A DNA stretch of 64,000 nucleotides from Candidatus Sulfomarinibacteraceae bacterium (GTDB lineage: Bacteria > Acidobacteriota > Thermoanaerobaculia > Thermoanaerobaculales > Sulfomarinibacteraceae), in the NCBI GenBank assembly GCA_963796455.1, contig CAWCLO010000005.1, positions 64,001-128,000 on the forward strand, written 5' to 3'. The position numbers were made by a program, and so were the translations under genes. This document shows, piece by piece, positions 1 through 39,512 of the stretch (the first letter of the stretch is position 1; every line of letters starts with the position of its first letter). The notes beneath the pieces were generated by a model. That model made no database searches, was not told where the DNA came from, and saw only the letters and a program-made list of their open reading frames with translations.

Positions 1-351
1 GCGGTTGCCCTTGTCCGCGTCCGTGTCCTTGCCCGAATTGCAGCGGCAGCGACAGTGTCCAGGGGCAGCGACAGGGATCAGCGATCAGAGGCAGAAATCA
101 GGGGCAGCGACGGCGTGATCACCTCCGGGTCGTTCAATAAAAGGAACAGCCGTTGTGGTGTCGGCGTCTCGCCTGCCCACCGTGCGGCCGAGACGGCCGC
201 ACCACCAAGGGCGGAGTCCCGAAGAAACGAGTGCTGTTCACTGTCCCGGCCGCTGATCGCTGACGCTGATGACTGAACACTGCCGCTGGCGACTGTTTGC
301 TGCCGCTGTCCCTGTGCGCTATCCGAGACTCTGTCTTGGACAAGAGTGATC
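1..351 (+). mobile_element. Gene-less derivative of the four-helix-bundle (4HB) repeat element; left end cut off by the window edge
   Basis: Shares CCCGAATTGCAGCGGCAGCGACAG with 21757-21780, the arm CACCTCCGGGTCGTTCAA (120-137) and the right end CTGTCTTGGACAAGAGTGATC (331-351) with the full copies. No 4HB ORF. Confidence 0.75.
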
Positions 352-8651: not shown

Positions 8652-9082
8652 ATCACTCTTCTCCAAGACAGAATCTCGGACGGCGTTCAGGGACAGCGCC
8701 AGCGACAAGGAACAGCAGACAGCGTTGGCGAACGGTAGTCAGCGGCAGCGGCAGTGTCCAGGACAGCGGCAGGTAGCAGGGACGGCGAACAGCGATCAGT
8801 GTTCAGCGGCAGCGGTCAGGATTTCAGACGGCGACGTGGCCACCTCCGGGTCGTTCAACGGAAGGGGTAGCCGGTAGGCGGCCGCCCGTGACGCGATGAA
8901 CACCTTCGATCAAGTCGGTGCCATGACCCGGCGGCTGTTGAATCCAATGAAGTGAGTGTTATTCGCGGTGCGCTGGCGCTGATCACTGCCGCTGCCGCTG
9001 ATTCCTGTTCCCTGACGCTGTCTACCGTTCTCTGTCCCTGTCCCTGCACGCTTTCCGAGATTCTGTTTTGGACAAGGGTGAT
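8652..9082 (+). mobile_element. MITE-like internal-deletion derivative of the 4HB element
   Basis: 29-bp terminal inverted repeats (8652-8680 vs 9054-9082, 26/29 match). Retains the leader arm GTGGCCACCTCCGGGTCGTTCAA and only the last ~20 codons of the 4HB gene (MNTFDQVGAMTRRLLNPMK*). Confidence 0.8.
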
Positions 9083-9164
9083 CCGATTGGGACGATTCGA
9101 TGATTATCCCAGTTCCTCGTTCCATATTCCTGATTCAAATCAGGTATTCGCTATCATCGAGGAT

Positions 9165-18102: not shown

Positions 18103-18158
18103 GAGTTCGGAGTTCGGAGTTCGGAGTTCGGAGTTCGGAATTCGGAGTTCGGATTTCG
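18103..18158 (+). repeat. Tandem heptamer (GAGTTCG)x8
   Basis: Six perfect and two single-mismatch copies directly after the stop codon. Confidence 0.9.
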
Positions 18159-19807: not shown

Positions 19808-20661
19808 GATCACTCTTGTCCAAGACAGTGTCTCAGACAGCGTCCAGCTGCAGCGGCAGAGTCCAGTGGCAGCGACAGCCGACAGGGTCAGCTAACAGAA
19901 GTCAGCGACAGCGAACAGCGCTCAACTCTTCGGATTCAATAGCCGCCAGGTCATGGCACGGACCTGATCGAAGGCTGTCATCGCTTTGCTGGCTCCATTT
20001 TGACTGATCGCCCCGGCGTGGGCGAGGAGCTCCAAGTGGCTGTCGACCTCTTTCGCCGAAGCGTAGGCGATTCTCCAGTGGTTCGATCGGTCTCTACCGA
20101 AACGGCCGTGGCCTTCTGCCAGGTTCGCAGGGACTGAACTCGCCGATCGGACTACCTGATCGGCTATGGATTTCAGCGGAGCGGGAACTCTCATCACGAG
20201 TTTGATCGTGATGCCTGCTGCTTCGAGTGCTTTCGAGTGGGCAATGAGGTTGGTGTTCGTGGCGGCTGAGGACATGGTCACCTCCGGGTCGTTCATGCCC
20301 ACACCCACAAGCCGGTGTGGTGGCCGATGTCAAGGATGCCCTGCACCCTGCCTGTCCTTGACATCGGCCGCCCACCGGCTACCCCTTCCTTGGAACGACC
20401 CGGTGGTGGCCACGCCGTCACTGCACCTGATCGCTGGCCCTGAACACTGCCCGCTGCCCGCTGCCCGCTGCCCGCTGTCCCTGTTCGCTGTTGCCTGTCG
20501 CTGCCGCTGGAAACTGTCGCTGCCGCTGCAATTCGGGCACCCGCACGGGCACGGACTCGGGCGCGGGGCAACCGCGAACGGGAAACGCCAAAAACCAACC
20601 CGTAACCCTCGTGTTCTCAGGTGCGCAACCTCATGCCTATTTGTTTTGGACAGCAGTGATC
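19808..20661 (-). mobile_element. 4HB repeat element, full copy A
   Basis: Ends GATCACTCTTGTCCAAGACAG / TTGTTTTGGACAGCAGTGATC (imperfect IR); hairpin leader; 4HB gene; collinear with 21644-22508 and 38841-39736. Confidence 0.8.
19922..20275 (-). CDS. Four-helix-bundle protein (TIGR02436 / 23S-rRNA-IVP-like), copy A
   Basis: DQVVRSASSVPANLAEGHGR and IAYASAKEV match the family pattern Q..R(A/S)A.S(I/V)..N(I/L)AEG..R; GGAGGTG RBS; 117 aa. Confidence 0.85.
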   Translation of the reverse strand: MSSAATNTNLIAHSKALEAAGITIKLVMRVPAPLKSIADQVVRSASSVPANLAEGHGRFGRDRSNHWRIAYASAKEVDSHLELLAHAGAISQNGASKAMTAFDQVRAMTWRLLNPKS

Positions 20662-20720
20662 CAGCATCCAGCGTCCTCGTAGCTTGTTGCTTGCAGCGAG
20701 CAAGGAATTGAGCGAGCTCT

Positions 20721-21455: not shown

Positions 21456-21908
21456 TACTTAATTGTAGCGTGAAACTGTTTTTACAAGGGGTGCTGGGCG
21501 CTAGATACTCGATTCCCGATGCTCGATACGACAAGATCATCTGTCGATTCTCACCCCTGTCGAGAGTTTCATTGGGTTCTTTTCTGGATTTGTCGATGGC
21601 AGCGGTTGGGGAGACAGGCTGAATCGAGGATCCAGTACCTGGCATCACTGCTGTCCAAAACAGGTCGTCACCTGAAGTTTCCCACCTGACAACACGTGGT
21701 TTACGGGTTGGATTTTGGCATATCCGGTTCGCGGTTGGCCCCTACCCGATCCCGATCCCGAATTGCAGCGGCAGCGACAGCGTCCAGCGTCAGCGACGGC
21801 AACAGCGAACAGGGACAGGGGGCAGTGTTCAGGAACAGCGAACAGGGACAGAGATCAGTGTTCAGCGACAGAGAGCTGCGGCAGCAGTCTGGAGTTCATG
21901 TGGCGAAG

Positions 21909-22046
21909 TGGCCACCACCGGGTCGTTCAACAGAAGGGGTAGCCGGTGGGCGGCCGATGTCAAGGACAGGCAGGGTGCAGGGCATCCTTGACATCGGCCG
22001 CCACACCGGCTTGTGGGTACGGGCATGAACGACCCGGAGGTGACCA
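21909..22046 (+). promoter_or_regulatory. Nested double stem-loop leader sequestering the 4HB RBS (also at 20275-20412 and 39333-39470)
   Basis: Outer stem 21909-21929 / 22026-22046 (19/21) covers GGAGGTG and the A of ATG; inner stem 21949-21966 / 21985-22002 is a perfect 18 bp plus an 8 bp extension. Confidence 0.75.
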
Positions 22047-22399
22047 TGTCCAACGCCGCCACGAACTCAATCCTCGTTGCCCACTCAAAAGCCCTCGAAG
22101 CAGCAGGAATCGCGATCAAACTCGTGATGAGGGTTCCAGCTCCGCTGAAGTCCATAGCCGATCAGGTCATCCGGTCGGCAAGTTCGGTCCCCGCGAACCT
22201 GGCAGAAGGTCACGGCCGATTCGGTAGAGACCGATCGAACCACTGGAGAATCGCCTACGCCTCAGCCAAAGAGGTCGACAGCCACTTGAAGCTCCTCGTC
22301 CACGCTGGGGCGGTCAACCGGAATCGAGCCAGTGAAGCGATGAAGGCCTTCGATCAGGTCCGTGCCATGACCTGGAGGCTGTTGAACCCGACAGAGTGA
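22046..22399 (+). CDS. Four-helix-bundle protein, copy B
   Basis: Same motifs; 16 substitutions vs copy A and 7 vs copy C over 117 aa (manual count). Confidence 0.85.
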   Translation: MSNAATNSILVAHSKALEAAGIAIKLVMRVPAPLKSIADQVIRSASSVPANLAEGHGRFGRDRSNHWRIAYASAKEVDSHLKLLVHAGAVNRNRASEAMKAFDQVRAMTWRLLNPTE

Positions 22400-22571
22400 G
22401 TGCTGTTGCCTGTCGCTGACGCTGTCTGCCGTTCCCTGTCTCTGTCTGTCTCTGTCTCTGTCGCTGTCCCTGATCGCTGTCGGAAACTCTGTCTTGGACA
22501 CGAGTGATCCTGCATCCAGCATCCTGCATCCAGGAGCCAGCATCCAGAAAGCGGGCGGTTTGGAATGCCGG

Positions 22572-23576
22572 CTACGGAGAGGTCGAGTTGAGTCCGACGA
22601 ATGTTCCGTCGTTACGCCGACAGAGGATCCGCATCAGGGTGGCAAAACGCACACCGGTATGTTCTCCGGCACCGGCCACCATGAAAACCGTCGGAAATCC
22701 GATGGCGTGAATCCGCACCTTCCGTTTGCCGTCGCGACCGGTGGTGTTGAGGTCGTCAACCGTTCGCACGACGCTGTCGATCGATGGGCCGGTGAACTCG
22801 TCGCCCAGGACGTAAATTGAAATACGGTGATTGGGATTGGCAAAGGTCCGGATGGCGCGGGTGATGCCTTCGACCGGACTGGAGTTGGAAAAGACGCTCC
22901 AAGAACGTAAGCGCGAGATCACCGCCTTGCGCCGGCCGGGGGTGTCTGGGATCCATTTTCCGGCATATTGCGAGTACATGTACTGCCCCATGTCGTTCAT
23001 GATCTGCATGCCTTTGACCTTGGGGTACGTGTCCAGCACCTGCGTCATCTTCTCCACCACCGCAGGCCACGCATGGTGATACATCGAACCGGATGTGTCG
23101 ATCACGAAAATGATGTACTCGCTGTCGACCGGGATACCCCCCACCGCAGCGTCCCGTTGTCGCCGCATCTGGCTCTGGTCGAGCAAGCGCCGCATCTCTT
23201 CGGTCAGATCCTGTTGTGCCGCCAGCATCCGGCCCTCGAGGATGTCCTGAACCTCGGAGAGCTGTGAGCTGGCGGCGTACTCACCACGAATTTCAGAGAG
23301 ATCACCGCGGAGGCGGGCGATCCCCTCCTGTTCGATCGAAACCTGTTGCTGGCGGGTGCGGAGCCTGCGATCGAGAATTGCTGTTTCGCCACGAATCTCG
23401 AAAATTTCCTCTTCGAGCCGGGCGATCAAACTGTCGAGATCGATCCGAGCATCCTCGATCTTTTGCGGCTCACCGAGTTTGGTCAACACCAGCAGGAGCA
23501 CGATGGCGCCGAAGCCGCAACACACGACATCCAGAAAGGACAGCGAGAAAACCTCGAATTCGCGGCGTCTTCTCAT
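22572..23576 (-). CDS. ExbD-like N-terminal TM (SFLDVV..GFG) + coiled coil + vWA domain protein
   Basis: TM containing conserved Asp; MIDAS motif DTSGS; LGDEF. Confidence 0.75.
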   Translation of the reverse strand: MRRRREFEVFSLSFLDVVCCGFGAIVLLLVLTKLGEPQKIEDARIDLDSLIARLEEEIFEIRGETAILDRRLRTRQQQVSIEQEGIARLRGDLSEIRGEYAASSQLSEVQDILEGRMLAAQQDLTEEMRRLLDQSQMRRQRDAAVGGIPVDSEYIIFVIDTSGSMYHHAWPAVVEKMTQVLDTYPKVKGMQIMNDMGQYMYSQYAGKWIPDTPGRRKAVISRLRSWSVFSNSSPVEGITRAIRTFANPNHRISIYVLGDEFTGPSIDSVVRTVDDLNTTGRDGKRKVRIHAIGFPTVFMVAGAGEHTGVRFATLMRILCRRNDGTFVGLNSTSP

Positions 23577-24664
23577 GGCCAGTCCCTGGCGATGCTCATG
23601 AAGGAACCCCGGCTGCGCATCGCGACCTTCCAGAACTCGCTGGCGGCCAGGGGATCTCCTTCCATCGGGAAGAGGATCACGTTGACCGGGACGCCGCTCG
23701 GTAGTTGTTCCAATGCGCGGCTGAAAAGCCGCAGACGTTGTTGAGGAGAAATGGTCGTCGAGCGGGCCGCTTTGTTGCCGACCGTCGGAAGACCATCGGT
23801 CAATACGATCACATTGTCGGGACGCGGGTTCATCTGAGAGGCGACGCCAAAGGCGTGGAAAAGGCTGGTTCCCTTCCCGGGAACGATCGCGCGAAGGTTG
23901 CGGACGGCGCCGTCCAGCACCTTGCGATCGCTGCCATCGAGCCAGGTGCCACCGGTGTCGGGGAGCACCGGGGCCGCCTCGGTATTGAAGCTGTAGATCT
24001 GGAACCGGCTGTCGCGCGGAATCTGGGTCGTCAGCCAGTCAACGGTCGCCAGATTCTGCTGCCACTTGGCCGCCCGTACCTTTTCGTTGTCGGGCAGGTT
24101 CCGGCGCCGGATCACGTTGACCAGGGTACTGCCGAGCATGGAAGCCGAGGCGTCCACCAGAAAGAGGATCCGTTTTCCGCCGACCTTGAGACCGGTCAGA
24201 TATTGCCGGTCGCCATCGCCGACAAAGGTCCGCACCCTGTCTCCCGGAGTCTCTTGCGATGGCAGGGAAGCGGAGAGGCGGCGGGCCTCCTCCTCCAGGG
24301 AGCGGAGATCGGTTTGGAGCCGGTTGATGTGCTCCCGACGGGCCAGCGTTGAGGCATCGAATGTCGCGAGCTCGACCCGGATCTCCTCGAGAGCCTCGAT
24401 CAAACGGCGGGCGAGACCCTGGGCCAGAGCCCGCTCCTCGTCGGTCTCTCGGACCGAGTTGCGCAGCTCCACCAGATTTCGATGACCCTCCAGAACCTCG
24501 CGCTCGAGGCGGTTGACCTCTCCCTGAAGATCAGAAGTGACCGTGGCCTCGTGGTCGCGAACCGCCCCGTTGATGATCATGAAGAGCAGAATGACCGCCC
24601 CCAGGCCGCAGGTCATCGCGTCCAGGAAGGAGAGCCCGATCGGGTTGACGCTTCGGGTCACCAT
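23573..24664 (-). CDS. ExbD-like N-terminal TM (SFLDAM..GLG) + coiled coil + vWA domain protein
   Basis: TM with Asp; MIDAS DASAS; LTDGLP. Confidence 0.75.
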   Translation of the reverse strand: MVTRSVNPIGLSFLDAMTCGLGAVILLFMIINGAVRDHEATVTSDLQGEVNRLEREVLEGHRNLVELRNSVRETDEERALAQGLARRLIEALEEIRVELATFDASTLARREHINRLQTDLRSLEEEARRLSASLPSQETPGDRVRTFVGDGDRQYLTGLKVGGKRILFLVDASASMLGSTLVNVIRRRNLPDNEKVRAAKWQQNLATVDWLTTQIPRDSRFQIYSFNTEAAPVLPDTGGTWLDGSDRKVLDGAVRNLRAIVPGKGTSLFHAFGVASQMNPRPDNVIVLTDGLPTVGNKAARSTTISPQQRLRLFSRALEQLPSGVPVNVILFPMEGDPLAASEFWKVAMRSRGSFMSIARDWP

Positions 24665-24665
24665 C

Positions 24666-26021
24666 TCACTTCGCCAGCGTGACGAGCAGGATTTCGTTGG
24701 AACCGACTCGGAGGCGGTCCCCCGTCACCACCTCGGTGGGACCTCTGATCGCTTCGCCGTTGATGAAAACCTGGGCGTTGGGCGGAGCCTCGATGATGGC
24801 CCTGCCGCGATCGATGCGGACCCGGGGCAGGTGGCCGATTTCAGGGTCGGAACCGTCAGTCGGAGCAGTCTCGTTGCTCGCGGTGAGACCCAGCGCCTGG
24901 CTCGACAGTTGATGGGCGACACCGTTGATGACGACGTGGGTCGGCACATTTTCGTGCGCGGCATTCCCGCTCTGCCGATCCACAGCGACCGTCATAGGGG
25001 CCGGTTTCTTTGCATCGTATCCGGGAAGCCGGGTGATCAGCCGCAGCTTTGGACCTTCCGAGCAGATGATCTCGGCCCAGTTGAGCGCCGTGCTGCCGGC
25101 GGCAGCCGGATGGAGGGCGACGATTTCCATATCTTCGGATTCAGAAAGGTGGGCCGCCAGCCCCGGCAAAGCCGCCGCGCGATCACCGAGGAGCAGGGTG
25201 ATGGGCCCTTCCTCGCGGTTTCGGCTGATCAGGTTGCGCACGATGTCGTACGGGTGGGATGCGGCTTCGACCAATTCGCGGCGCTCGATCTCGATGGAGT
25301 GGCGCCGGCCTCCCGATGAGATCGCCACTTCGGCCGACTGCCGGTCGGCGAGAGTCGCCAGGTGCGTATGGAGCTGGATATAGAGGATCTGTTCGGTGGC
25401 GGCCTGGTGGAGCGGGTCGAAACGGGTCGTGCGGACAAAATGCCGAGAAATGGCGCGGGCCCACAGGTCGTAAAGATTGACCAGGCCGACTTGGGACTCT
25501 TCGACAACGGACCGGCGCACGACCTCGTCGCCATGTTCGAGAACCGTCAGGACAGCACGGTGGAGATGAAAATCGAGGTGGAGGCAATGGCGCCGGGTTT
25601 CACGGTCGGCGCATGAAGCGACGGCCACATCCACGAGGCCCCGAGCGGGCATCGTGCAGGCCTGGGCGATTCCGAGAAGAAGACCGAGTTGTTCGCCGGA
25701 GAAGGTCCCGGGCACCGCCATGATGACCTCGTCCGCCGTGCGCCCGGTCGCGTCCCAGATCTGCGACAAATGAGCGTGAGCCAGGTCCGCGGTCCTGAGG
25801 TGACCAGGGTAGGGACGTCCGAGTTCCCGGGTGCTGAGTTGCTGCCAGAAGCGGCTGTGCAGACGGCGGGGTTTGAGCCGCGCGTTGCTTGCTGCATCGA
25901 GCCCGATCTCGAGCTGATCGCCATCGGAGATGGCGAGACCTGGGTTCGCCAGCGAGACCTTGCCGCGGCTGCTCACCGTGACGATCCCGGAATCCACCAA
26001 CTCGAGGGCCAGCCGTTCCAT
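24666..26021 (-). CDS. Degenerate Hsp70/actin-like domain + C-terminal FHA-like domain protein
   Basis: VIMAVPGTFSGEQL..L..A..C....GLVD.AVA resembles the Hsp70 NBD; C-terminal VFING...VTGDRLRVG resembles FHA. Confidence 0.55.
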   Translation of the reverse strand: MERLALELVDSGIVTVSSRGKVSLANPGLAISDGDQLEIGLDAASNARLKPRRLHSRFWQQLSTRELGRPYPGHLRTADLAHAHLSQIWDATGRTADEVIMAVPGTFSGEQLGLLLGIAQACTMPARGLVDVAVASCADRETRRHCLHLDFHLHRAVLTVLEHGDEVVRRSVVEESQVGLVNLYDLWARAISRHFVRTTRFDPLHQAATEQILYIQLHTHLATLADRQSAEVAISSGGRRHSIEIERRELVEAASHPYDIVRNLISRNREEGPITLLLGDRAAALPGLAAHLSESEDMEIVALHPAAAGSTALNWAEIICSEGPKLRLITRLPGYDAKKPAPMTVAVDRQSGNAAHENVPTHVVINGVAHQLSSQALGLTASNETAPTDGSDPEIGHLPRVRIDRGRAIIEAPPNAQVFINGEAIRGPTEVVTGDRLRVGSNEILLVTLAK

Positions 26022-26025
26022 TTGC

Positions 26026-26853
26026 TTAGATGCCCCCACGCAGATCTGCTGATGCGGCGCCGGCCTGGAGATGGCGAATCAGGTGGGTGTCGACATAGCT
26101 TTCGGTATCGAGCACCAGCCGCTCCTGCCGCAGCTGGAGCTGGTGGAGCAGAAACATCAGGACGATGGAGATCAGGAGGGCGATGAAGGTCGAGTTGAAG
26201 GCGATGCCGAGGTTGCGGGTGACACCGGTGATGTCTCCCTCGACGGCGCGGTGGGCCTGGCCGAGAGCGGTCCCGATGCCCCGCACCGTTCCGATGAACC
26301 CGATCGAAGGAATCGCCCACGCGATGTAGCGCACCATGGCGAGTTCTGAGTCGAGGCGTTCCGACTCGGTGTCGGCGGCGGCGCGAGCAGTGTCGGATGC
26401 GTCCTGGATGCTGCCGGTGGCACCGAAGCGGTGGAGGGCGGCGAGCAGCGCGCGCGGCAGCAGCAGGCGTTTTTTGCCCGTCGGCAGCGCCTCGATCTGG
26501 CGTGCGTATTCCCGAGAGTCTTCGGGCAGGATGCGCACTCCATCGGCGACCGGGACCAGTTCGTCTTCGAGGAGCTGGCTCTCCCGCGCGGTGGTGATGC
26601 CCTTTGAGGCCATGATCGCGATGGCCCACAGCATGAGGACAAAACAGGCCTCTTGTTCGAAATCGCGAACGATGACCCACACCGATCGTTCCTGGATGTA
26701 CTCGGGATCGGCTGCCATCCGGGCCGATTGTTCGGCCATGAAGGTGTCCGCTTTGGGTCTCACAATCGTCACGTAGACCGCATGAACGATGATCAGGGCG
26801 ACCACCAGCGAAGCGAGCTGAAAGACAAAATCGACGGAATCATTTCGACGCAT
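26026..26853 (-). CDS. MotA/TolQ/ExbB proton-channel family protein
   Basis: AIPSIGFIGTVRGI and LGIAFNSTFIAL signature helices. Confidence 0.9.
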   Translation of the reverse strand: MRRNDSVDFVFQLASLVVALIIVHAVYVTIVRPKADTFMAEQSARMAADPEYIQERSVWVIVRDFEQEACFVLMLWAIAIMASKGITTARESQLLEDELVPVADGVRILPEDSREYARQIEALPTGKKRLLLPRALLAALHRFGATGSIQDASDTARAAADTESERLDSELAMVRYIAWAIPSIGFIGTVRGIGTALGQAHRAVEGDITGVTRNLGIAFNSTFIALLISIVLMFLLHQLQLRQERLVLDTESYVDTHLIRHLQAGAASADLRGGI

Positions 26854-26860
26854 GTTGGCC

Positions 26861-27064
26861 TCAGATATCAGTCGGAAACGCGACCGCGCTGTCCGCAGGT
26901 AGCTTTTCGGTTGGTTGAAAATCTGGCAGTGGGGTCGCTCCGGTTTCCGTGCCCTGGGGCTCGGCTGCCGGTGAAGCACCGGCGGCCACCAGCCAGCCCG
27001 AAGCCAGTATGAGGGCCGCGGCCAAAACTGTGAGAAGGACCCGGTATTTCGTGATGGCTCTCAT
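26861..27064 (-). CDS. Small exported protein ending AVAFPTDI
   Basis: Signal-peptide-like N-terminus; tightly packed in the operon. Confidence 0.6.
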   Translation of the reverse strand: MRAITKYRVLLTVLAAALILASGWLVAAGASPAAEPQGTETGATPLPDFQPTEKLPADSAVAFPTDI

Positions 27065-38979: not shown

Positions 38980-39333
38980 TCACTTCGTCGGGTTCAACAA
39001 CCGCCAGGTCATGGCACGGACCTGATCGAAGGCCTTCATCGCTTCACCGGCTCCATTCCGGTTGACCGCCCCAGCGTGGGCGAGGAGCTTCAAGTGGCTG
39101 TCGACCTCTTTCGCCGAGGCGTAGGCGATTCTCCAGTGATTCGACCGGTCTCTACCGACTCGGCCGTGCCCTTCTGCCAGATTCGCAGGGACCGAACTTG
39201 CCGACCGGATCACCTGGTCGGCTATGGATTTCAGCGGAGCTGGAACCCTCATCACGAGTTTGATCGCGATTCCTGCTGCTTCGAGGGCTTTCGAGTGGGC
39301 AACGAGGTTGGTGTTCGTGGCGGCGTTGGACAT
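38980..39333 (-). CDS. Four-helix-bundle protein, copy C
   Basis: Same motifs as copies A and B. Confidence 0.85.
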   Translation of the reverse strand: MSNAATNTNLVAHSKALEAAGIAIKLVMRVPAPLKSIADQVIRSASSVPANLAEGHGRVGRDRSNHWRIAYASAKEVDSHLKLLAHAGAVNRNGAGEAMKAFDQVRAMTWRLLNPTK

Positions 39334-39512
39334 GGTCACCTCCGGGTCGTTCATGCCCATTCCCACAAGCCGGTGTGGCGGCCGATGTCAAGGATGCCCT
39401 GCACCCTGCCTGTCCTTGACATCGGTCGCCCACCGGCTACCCCTTCTTTGGAACGACCCGGAGGTGGCCACTTCGCCACATGAACTCCAGACTGCTGCCG
39501 CTGCCGCTGCCG

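Follow-up and report, generated by a model that had tools for sequence, protein, structure and literature searches.

The analysed window, a 64,000-nt stretch of the genome of a Candidatus Sulfomarinibacteraceae bacterium, contains a gene for a 117-aa four-helix-bundle protein that is preceded by a nested hairpin leader. The leader and this single PF05635 (23S-IVS/Avd-like) gene form one transposase-less cassette (Table 1). In the fold of the whole element, 76 nt of the 5' low-complexity arm pair with the 3' arm. A BLAST search of the genome with the leader returned 68 full copies, all of them distinct, and 90 partial loci; the original prediction had known three copies, those in the window.

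Table 1. Features of the cassette and further full leader copies in the window
Feature	Position	Strand	Remarks
Second full leader copy	20275..20412	-	within the window
Left terminal inverted repeat	21646..21662	+	match to the downstream end in autonomous elements of the IS4 family (DUF4372+DDE)
5' low-complexity purine-rich arm	21760..21900	+	complement of the 3' arm; little conservation from copy to copy
P1 5' arm	21909..21929	+	anti-SD; mimic of the 16S rRNA 3' end
J1	21930..21939	+	5' side of open internal loop; purine-rich, variable (0.149 per site from consensus)
P2 5' arm	21940..21966	+	TAG conserved at base; middle covaries freely; TCAAGG core near-invariant; reads TTGACA-N16-TA on the - strand
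Apex ("18-nt loop")	21967..21984	+	contains P4 triloop mini-hairpin at 21976-21984
P2 3' arm	21985..22011	+	CCTTGAC core, one bulge
J2	22012..22027	+	open loop side; includes upstream in-frame ATG 22025-22027
P1 3' arm	22026..22046	+	extended Shine-Dalgarno GGAGGTGA (22036-22043) and first start-codon base
117-aa four-helix-bundle gene	22046..22399	+	PF05635, TIGR02436; purifying selection among copies
3' low-complexity pyrimidine-rich arm	22400..22489	+	
Right terminal inverted repeat	22490..22506	+	window copy without clean target duplication
Third full leader copy	39333..39470	-	within the window

Copies, relatives and insertion-sequence shells

The 17-bp terminal inverted repeats were present at both ends of 36 of the 68 full copies, at one end of 25 and at neither end of 7. 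Target duplications of 9 bp were seen at several copies, mostly inside heptamer arrays, and at two non-repeat sites the duplication covers 8 of 9 bases. When metagenomes were scanned with the left end, 103 stretches were retrieved, including elements of 1.36-1.41 kb that have both ends and contain an ORF of about 390 aa. One of these ORFs was tested and matched DUF4372 and DDE_Tnp_1, which identifies it as an IS4-family transposase. The terminal repeats are therefore common to the cassette and to an autonomous IS4-family element, as expected of a non-autonomous cassette. The cognate transposase is absent from this 90.5%-complete genome; DUF4372 was found in 1 of 25 genus genomes, and the one DDE_Tnp_1 match in this genome is bounded by other ends. 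Elements of 150-250 bp that share these IS4-type ends and likewise have target duplications were noticed on unrelated low-GC metagenome contigs (many of L079-L159). The genome has six Y1/HUH transposase genes.

In relatives, the leader and gene lie between different, ISL3-type ends. Exact 8-bp duplications flank 5 of the 12 such elements listed, two of which look like one site, and an ISL3 transposase in genome G008 is flanked by similar ends. This analysis showed that leader and gene travel as a unit inside IS4-type or ISL3-type ends. The leader is a fixed partner of the gene in two IS shells, a point absent from the original prediction, as is its dispensability for transposition. Both shells tend to lie in heptamer arrays, with duplications 1-2 bases longer than the period; in the window, such tandem arrays occur between genes at 18103-18158, 20650-20680 and 22507-22545. 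An operon whose genes were named by eye from their translations as vWA-like, MotA/TolQ-like and coiled-coil reads towards the cassette from 22572-27000 on the minus strand.

An ORF-less derivative with IS4-type ends was found in 76 copies and keeps only the P1 5' arm of the leader. Since this leaderless derivative has the same ends, the leader is dispensable for transposition, and its role as a transposition signal was rejected on the basis of the derivative and of other deletions that carry the same terminal repeats. The derivative outnumbers the full cassette (76 vs 68 copies); one copy lies at window positions 1-348 on the plus strand and 75 lie elsewhere, and a nested hairpin other than that of the leader takes the place of leader and gene. 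At 8694-9085 the window also has an internally deleted cassette copy, in which the P1 5' arm is joined to the end of the ORF and right-end-type sequence stands on both sides. The cassette resembles IS4/ISL3 mobile insertion cassettes and MITEs in having no transposase, the terminal repeats of autonomous IS elements and duplications of 8-9 bp. It differs from them in its cargo: leader and gene form a strongly conserved unit, present in both shells, with recombination among copies.

Fourteen of 18 genus relatives had a match, and in relatives most full-length matches run from the P1 5' arm to somewhere near the stop codon. The exact P1 pattern was found in 29 of 76 family genomes, from six genera including this one, and in none of 42 genomes of another family. 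Most titled records in which the pattern occurs carry the label Sulfomarinibacteraceae or Thermoanaerobaculales. A covariance-model search of 150 further genomes of the phylum, with 20 candidates scored per genome, found no leader. Related contigs in RNA run X1 (share 0.14) extend over leader and ORF, in data that consist of unstranded contigs, give no expression level and may include DNA carry-over. A more distant four-helix-bundle gene from another family (L016:1180-1400) has a different, shorter hairpin over its Shine-Dalgarno (SD) sequence and TTGACA upstream.

The closest solved relative of the 117-aa protein is the five-chain XCC0516 (2GSC; E 0.003). To our knowledge, PF05635 proteins are common and have solved structures, and no function is known for them outside diversity-generating retroelements (DGRs). 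The 117-aa protein and Avd presumably belong to related four-helix-bundle families. Intact 117-codon ORFs were found in 57 copies, with a mean divergence of 11%, dS of 0.36 and dN/dS of 0.16. When changes were split by class, dN/dS was 0.49 for singletons and 0.13-0.18 for shared changes; selection thus falls mostly on the lineages that spread, and leader and protein therefore probably aid the propagation of their own copy. Only 2 of the 57 copies have a neighbour within 2%, the median nearest-neighbour distance is 6.8%, and four gametes occur at 912 of 1081 pairs of common sites, which together with the divergence indicates an old and mosaic copy family. The result is a puzzle: purifying selection maintains a passenger gene and its leader across dozens of mosaic copies, although neither is needed for transposition.

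A search for reverse transcriptase gave 0 matches in this 90.5%-complete genome and none in G060 and G064, two other high-copy genomes; it is present in the genomes G006, G008 and G014. Retro-mobility via a resident reverse transcriptase was accordingly rejected for this genome, G060 and G064. Adenine-specific, DGR-like mutagenesis was rejected as well, as segregating sites were 43 of 83 for A, 71 of 113 for C and 53 of 104 for G. According to 10.1101/2023.10.23.563531, Avd pentamers contact an RNA stem-loop in the Bordetella phage DGR, and the cassette likewise places a structured RNA next to a four-helix-bundle gene. Unlike that system, this genome has no reverse transcriptase and no adenine-biased variation. 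Here the leader precedes its gene and carries triloops, in place of the 11-bp stem with a UNCG loop of the DGR RNA. With no reverse transcriptase found, and with A sites no more variable than C or G sites, we rejected the identification of the leader as a DGR RNA.

A literature search covering main texts and few subscription journals found no description of the leader or the cassette. Multicopy heptamer elements are listed, without S23 genes, in the portion of PMC2700814 available, and the available portion of PMC4679880 does not mention four-helix-bundle genes.

Architecture and conservation of the leader

Two nested helices, P1 and P2, make up the leader. The 21-bp outer stem of the original prediction, placed over the SD sequence and the A of the start codon, was found with 19 of 21 Watson-Crick pairs in this copy (21909-21929 / 22026-22046); the mismatches are one C·A and one A·A, and the helix spans GGAGGTGA and the A of the ATG (22046). 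The perfect 18-bp inner stem was likewise confirmed (21949-21966 / 21985-22002), with 8 bp more beyond a one-base bulge. P1 and P2 are thus helices of 21 and 26 bp. The folding z-score was -9.2 on the plus strand and -13.3 on the minus strand, and none of 200 shuffled sequences was equally stable. An Rfam search gave a best E of 1.6 and scores of 18-22 bits against cut-offs of 42-87; the leader is outside every Rfam family.

The original prediction had described the leader as more conserved than its flanking arms; it is also more conserved than the synonymous sites of the gene. Divergence from the consensus within the genome was 0.007-0.039 per site for the stems and the 18-nt loop, compared with 0.16 at four-fold sites of the gene, which are about 20 times more variable than the stem cores. 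Second codon positions diverge by 0.032 per site, and the stems and the loop are as low or lower. The unpaired apex loop is as conserved as the stems, and the strands of the internal loop are more variable (0.15 per site in J1 and 0.07 in J2). Whole leaders differ by 4.8% among copies.

Covariation, the check named in the original prediction, was present across relatives. In 33 leaders picked for diversity from 63 parsed, compensatory changes occurred at 19 of 42 pairs, counted without correction for phylogeny, and 96.9% of cells were paired compared with 26-46% in slid controls. Two-sided changes cluster in the middle of P2, and the near-invariant parts are the P1 core and the TCAAGG/CCTTGA core. 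The leader is therefore a conserved structured motif with compensatory changes across divergent copies, and this includes a small additional hairpin, P4. A hairpin of at least 4 bp stands just ahead of the P2 3' arm in 108 of 119 leaders (mean of 10.6 after shuffling). Its loop has three bases in 105 of the 108, the loop letters vary freely and the stems covary; in this species P4 is 3 bp long in 66 of 68 copies. What had been read as an 18-nt loop contains a conserved triloop mini-hairpin. The identity of that loop, claimed for all three copies of the window, holds for them (3/3), but genome-wide it extends to 60 of 68 copies, and in relatives the apex measures 21-35 nt, many of them inserting a further hairpin (P3) before P4.

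Template switching can generate both covariation and partner-dependent conservation, and its occurrence is shown by a fully symmetrised leader (L203) and a leader with an inverted apex (L021). It cannot account for the conserved unpaired or asymmetric features, namely the loop, P4, a TA in the P2 left arm and an upstream ATG; the latter three and the open asymmetric internal loop are kept across six genera.

Predicted burial of the Shine-Dalgarno sequence

Eight bases of the P1 3' arm are complementary to the 16S tail of the same genome (median duplex of -15.2 kcal/mol) and stand at a normal spacing to the ATG. By prediction, the anti-SD arm pairs with this true SD before the start codon, as in leaders that sequester a ribosome-binding site (RBS), and GGAGG is unpaired only 2-5% of the time. 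When the 5' arm was removed in silico, the accessibility of the SD rose from 0.25 to 0.40-0.56 with the transcript begun at four points inside the leader; with the transcript 5' end at 22024, it was 0.29. The ORF-less derivatives served as a natural control. Their P1 5' arm, scored in 72 of the 76 copies, has 29 alleles and a mismatch rate of 0.070 per site, compared with 7 alleles and 0.0165 per site in full copies. Loss of its partner and of the ORF speeds the decay of the arm about fourfold.

A transcription start downstream of the anti-SD arm was one of the points on which the original prediction could fail. At spacers of 15-19, each of 100 leaders lacks a TA after the forward TTGAC, and no sigma-70 start was accordingly found there; a consensus promoter scan of the leader also gave no forward sigma-70 site, and a forward promoter in P2 was rejected because TA is absent from all 100 leaders. 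At the level of sequence, the proposed SD lock is thus supported by the 16S-tail complement, the decay of the 5' arm and the lack of a forward sigma-70 site, and covariation is present.

A second in-frame ATG lies at the inner edge of P1, 21 nt ahead of the main start, in 67 of 68 leaders of this genome and in 53 of 58 leaders of relatives. It is preceded by a purine-rich open loop that is SD-like in relatives and weak here. In this species, the SD-like pairing of J2 is weak (-3.8) and that of J1 is equal or better, a point against the reading preferred below. A conserved upstream mini-ORF ending at the TAG was rejected, as by eye it is in frame in some leaders and out of frame in others.

We tentatively prefer, with a probability of about 45%, a translational lock on the sense strand that is off by default and carries a sequence-specific docking apex. 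Read-in transcription, begun at the cassette end or in host genes, would yield RNA that folds P1 and stays untranslated, as proposed for the transposase RBS of IS10. The invariant stem cores and the triloop apex would form a protein docking site, and binding or cleavage at the stem or apex may open the lock; ribosome entry at the open J2 loop and the upstream ATG would be an alternative opening. The lock is predicted from the complementarity described above; a read-in transcript, an unlocking event and a ligand are inferred. The hairpin likely also serves as a candidate docking site for protein, possibly for the product of its own gene; by analogy, the ligand would most plausibly be that product, an Avd-like pentamer, or RNase III.

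Several observations count against the lock. Host genes pointing in at the 68 copies, from rough gene calls, are antisense in 49 cases and sense in 40. Rare leader changes number 0.91 in copies with a broken ORF and 1.28 in intact copies, that is, leader and ORF decay are uncoupled. Intact leaders survive in ORF-deleted copies of relatives at 5 loci. Finally, four other divergent PF05635 genes of this genome (C4:1278094, C1:983149, C9:2726 and C10:733004) have their own arrays of inverted 6-8-base repeats and no leader.

Davis, Simons and Kleckner reportedly described in 1985 how RBS-sequestering stems of IS10 protect its transposase gene from outside promoters. Here too, an upstream arm would pair with the RBS in read-in transcripts of an element bounded by IS4-family ends. 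Unlike in IS10, the leader guards a passenger gene and not a transposase, it is far more elaborate (140 nt, three to four helices), no internal promoter was found, and it moves with its gene between IS4-type and ISL3-type ends. By analogy, it may be viewed as an unusual RBS-sequestering leader of an IS-bounded element. The present analysis adds a map of covariation, the hairpin in the apex, the second start, the half-promoter geometry described below, the derivative control and a weakened strand argument. As a candidate ligand and regulatory element for a PF05635 protein, the leader is a well-delimited structure of 140 nt backed by covariation, and the natural variants (with or without P3, leaderless, ORF-less) are ready controls.

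Strand of action and other explanations

The original prediction had noted that three mismatch types in the stems are A·C on the coding strand and G·T (G·U) on the other, and had considered that the species that folds could be antisense RNA or ssDNA. On the plus strand A·C is indeed in excess: A·C to G·T was 26:9 in 42 representatives, 49:18 as genome-site types and 26:13 as site types, and four-fold sites gave no mutational bias matching it. The excess is nevertheless weak, because 12 of the 26 A·C mismatches fall at one SD-adjacent spot where the SD fixes the 3' base, and 14:8 is left without this spot. In folding energy the strands are about 1 kcal/mol apart out of 106 (about 1%), and the minus strand is the more stable one in only 24 of 42 representatives. 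An antisense or ssDNA species is not established by these values.

It is rather doubtful, for these reasons among others, that the working form is DNA, i.e., an ssDNA hairpin or cruciform, perhaps of the bottom strand, bound by the four-helix-bundle protein or a host factor. Such a hairpin would drive the copying or conversion of leader plus gene between copies and IS shells, with the SD lock as a by-product. The direction of the A·C excess is consistent with it, as are the three-base P4 loops with freely varying letters, the DNA-level events at the palindrome in L021 and L203, the strong mosaicism of the copies, the occurrence of one core in two shells, and the lack of reverse transcriptase in this and two other high-copy genomes. 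Apart from the small residual strand excess and the near-equal energies, it is opposed by a small replication-strand bias (40:28 by local GC skew) and by the 76 copies reached by leaderless derivatives, and it leaves the ideal SD on one arm unexplained. We also regard it as unlikely, though worth stating, that an undescribed selfish module has the leader as its cis recognition element; in such a module, an Avd-like pentamer would bind its own RNA or ssDNA hairpin and promote leader-plus-gene copying. If true, copying would proceed by homing or gene conversion independently of the surrounding IS ends, and the module would be a free-standing, reverse-transcriptase-free relative of rRNA intervening sequences and of the DGR Avd-RNA module.

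Part of a promoter is visible on the minus strand. TTGACA occurs there in 79 of 100 leaders and TTGAC-N16/17-TA in 95 of 100, despite a variable spacer sequence; the TA as such was present in 96 of 100 leaders, and in the mirror arm it is never present. Native promoters of this genome have the form TTGAC-N17-TAnnnT (10.7% of intergenic vs 0.7% of ORF sites). The P2 left arm could thus be an outward sigma-70 promoter, similar in arrangement to pOUT of IS10, whose small RNA against the anti-SD arm would unlock or titrate the mRNA. We consider this improbable, as the full TAnnnT is lacking: the -35 and TA are in place, but the -7 T is mostly missing (11 of 96 leaders vs 73 of 106 native sites). 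In addition, the consensus scan finds nothing, and the fixed spacing may simply reflect stem length.

Cleavage by RNase III was considered on the precedent of Coxiella burnetii and its intervening sequence (IVS), where, according to the part of PMC4990558 available, RNase III cleavage inside a 28-bp stem of the IVS takes away the putative SD of the S23p ORF. The cassette shares with this 23S IVS a PF05635 protein, a long stem over or near the SD and complementary arms that enclose the ORF. It differs in its location away from rRNA (no PF05635 match was found in the single 23S gene), in its 68 dispersed copies, in an ORF under purifying selection rather than decay, and in a separate nested leader with an ideal SD upstream of the ORF. 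Its identity as an rRNA IVS was rejected since it is not within an rRNA gene; the origin of rRNA intervening sequences is itself still a matter of hypothesis in the same part of PMC4990558. P1 and P2 are long enough helices to suit an IVS-style processing stem cut at the SD, by which the gene would be silenced and degraded rather than switched. There is little likelihood of this, given that purifying selection on the ORF requires expression, that an IVS stem encloses its ORF, a role that the long arms fit here, and that sequence-invariant cores and P4 are unnecessary for plain cleavage.

A palindrome without function, which template switching keeps perfect and the cassette takes with it, would agree with the symmetrised and inverted leaders and with the efficient transposition of leaderless derivatives, but is very improbable in view of the loop as conserved as the stems, the far greater variability of four-fold sites and the persistence across six genera of TA, upstream ATG, P4 and the open loop. 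Among the leaders, a multi-copy variant (L197, L218, L233 and L237) has lost the CCTTGAC core of the right arm and keeps the left-arm core and the TAG.
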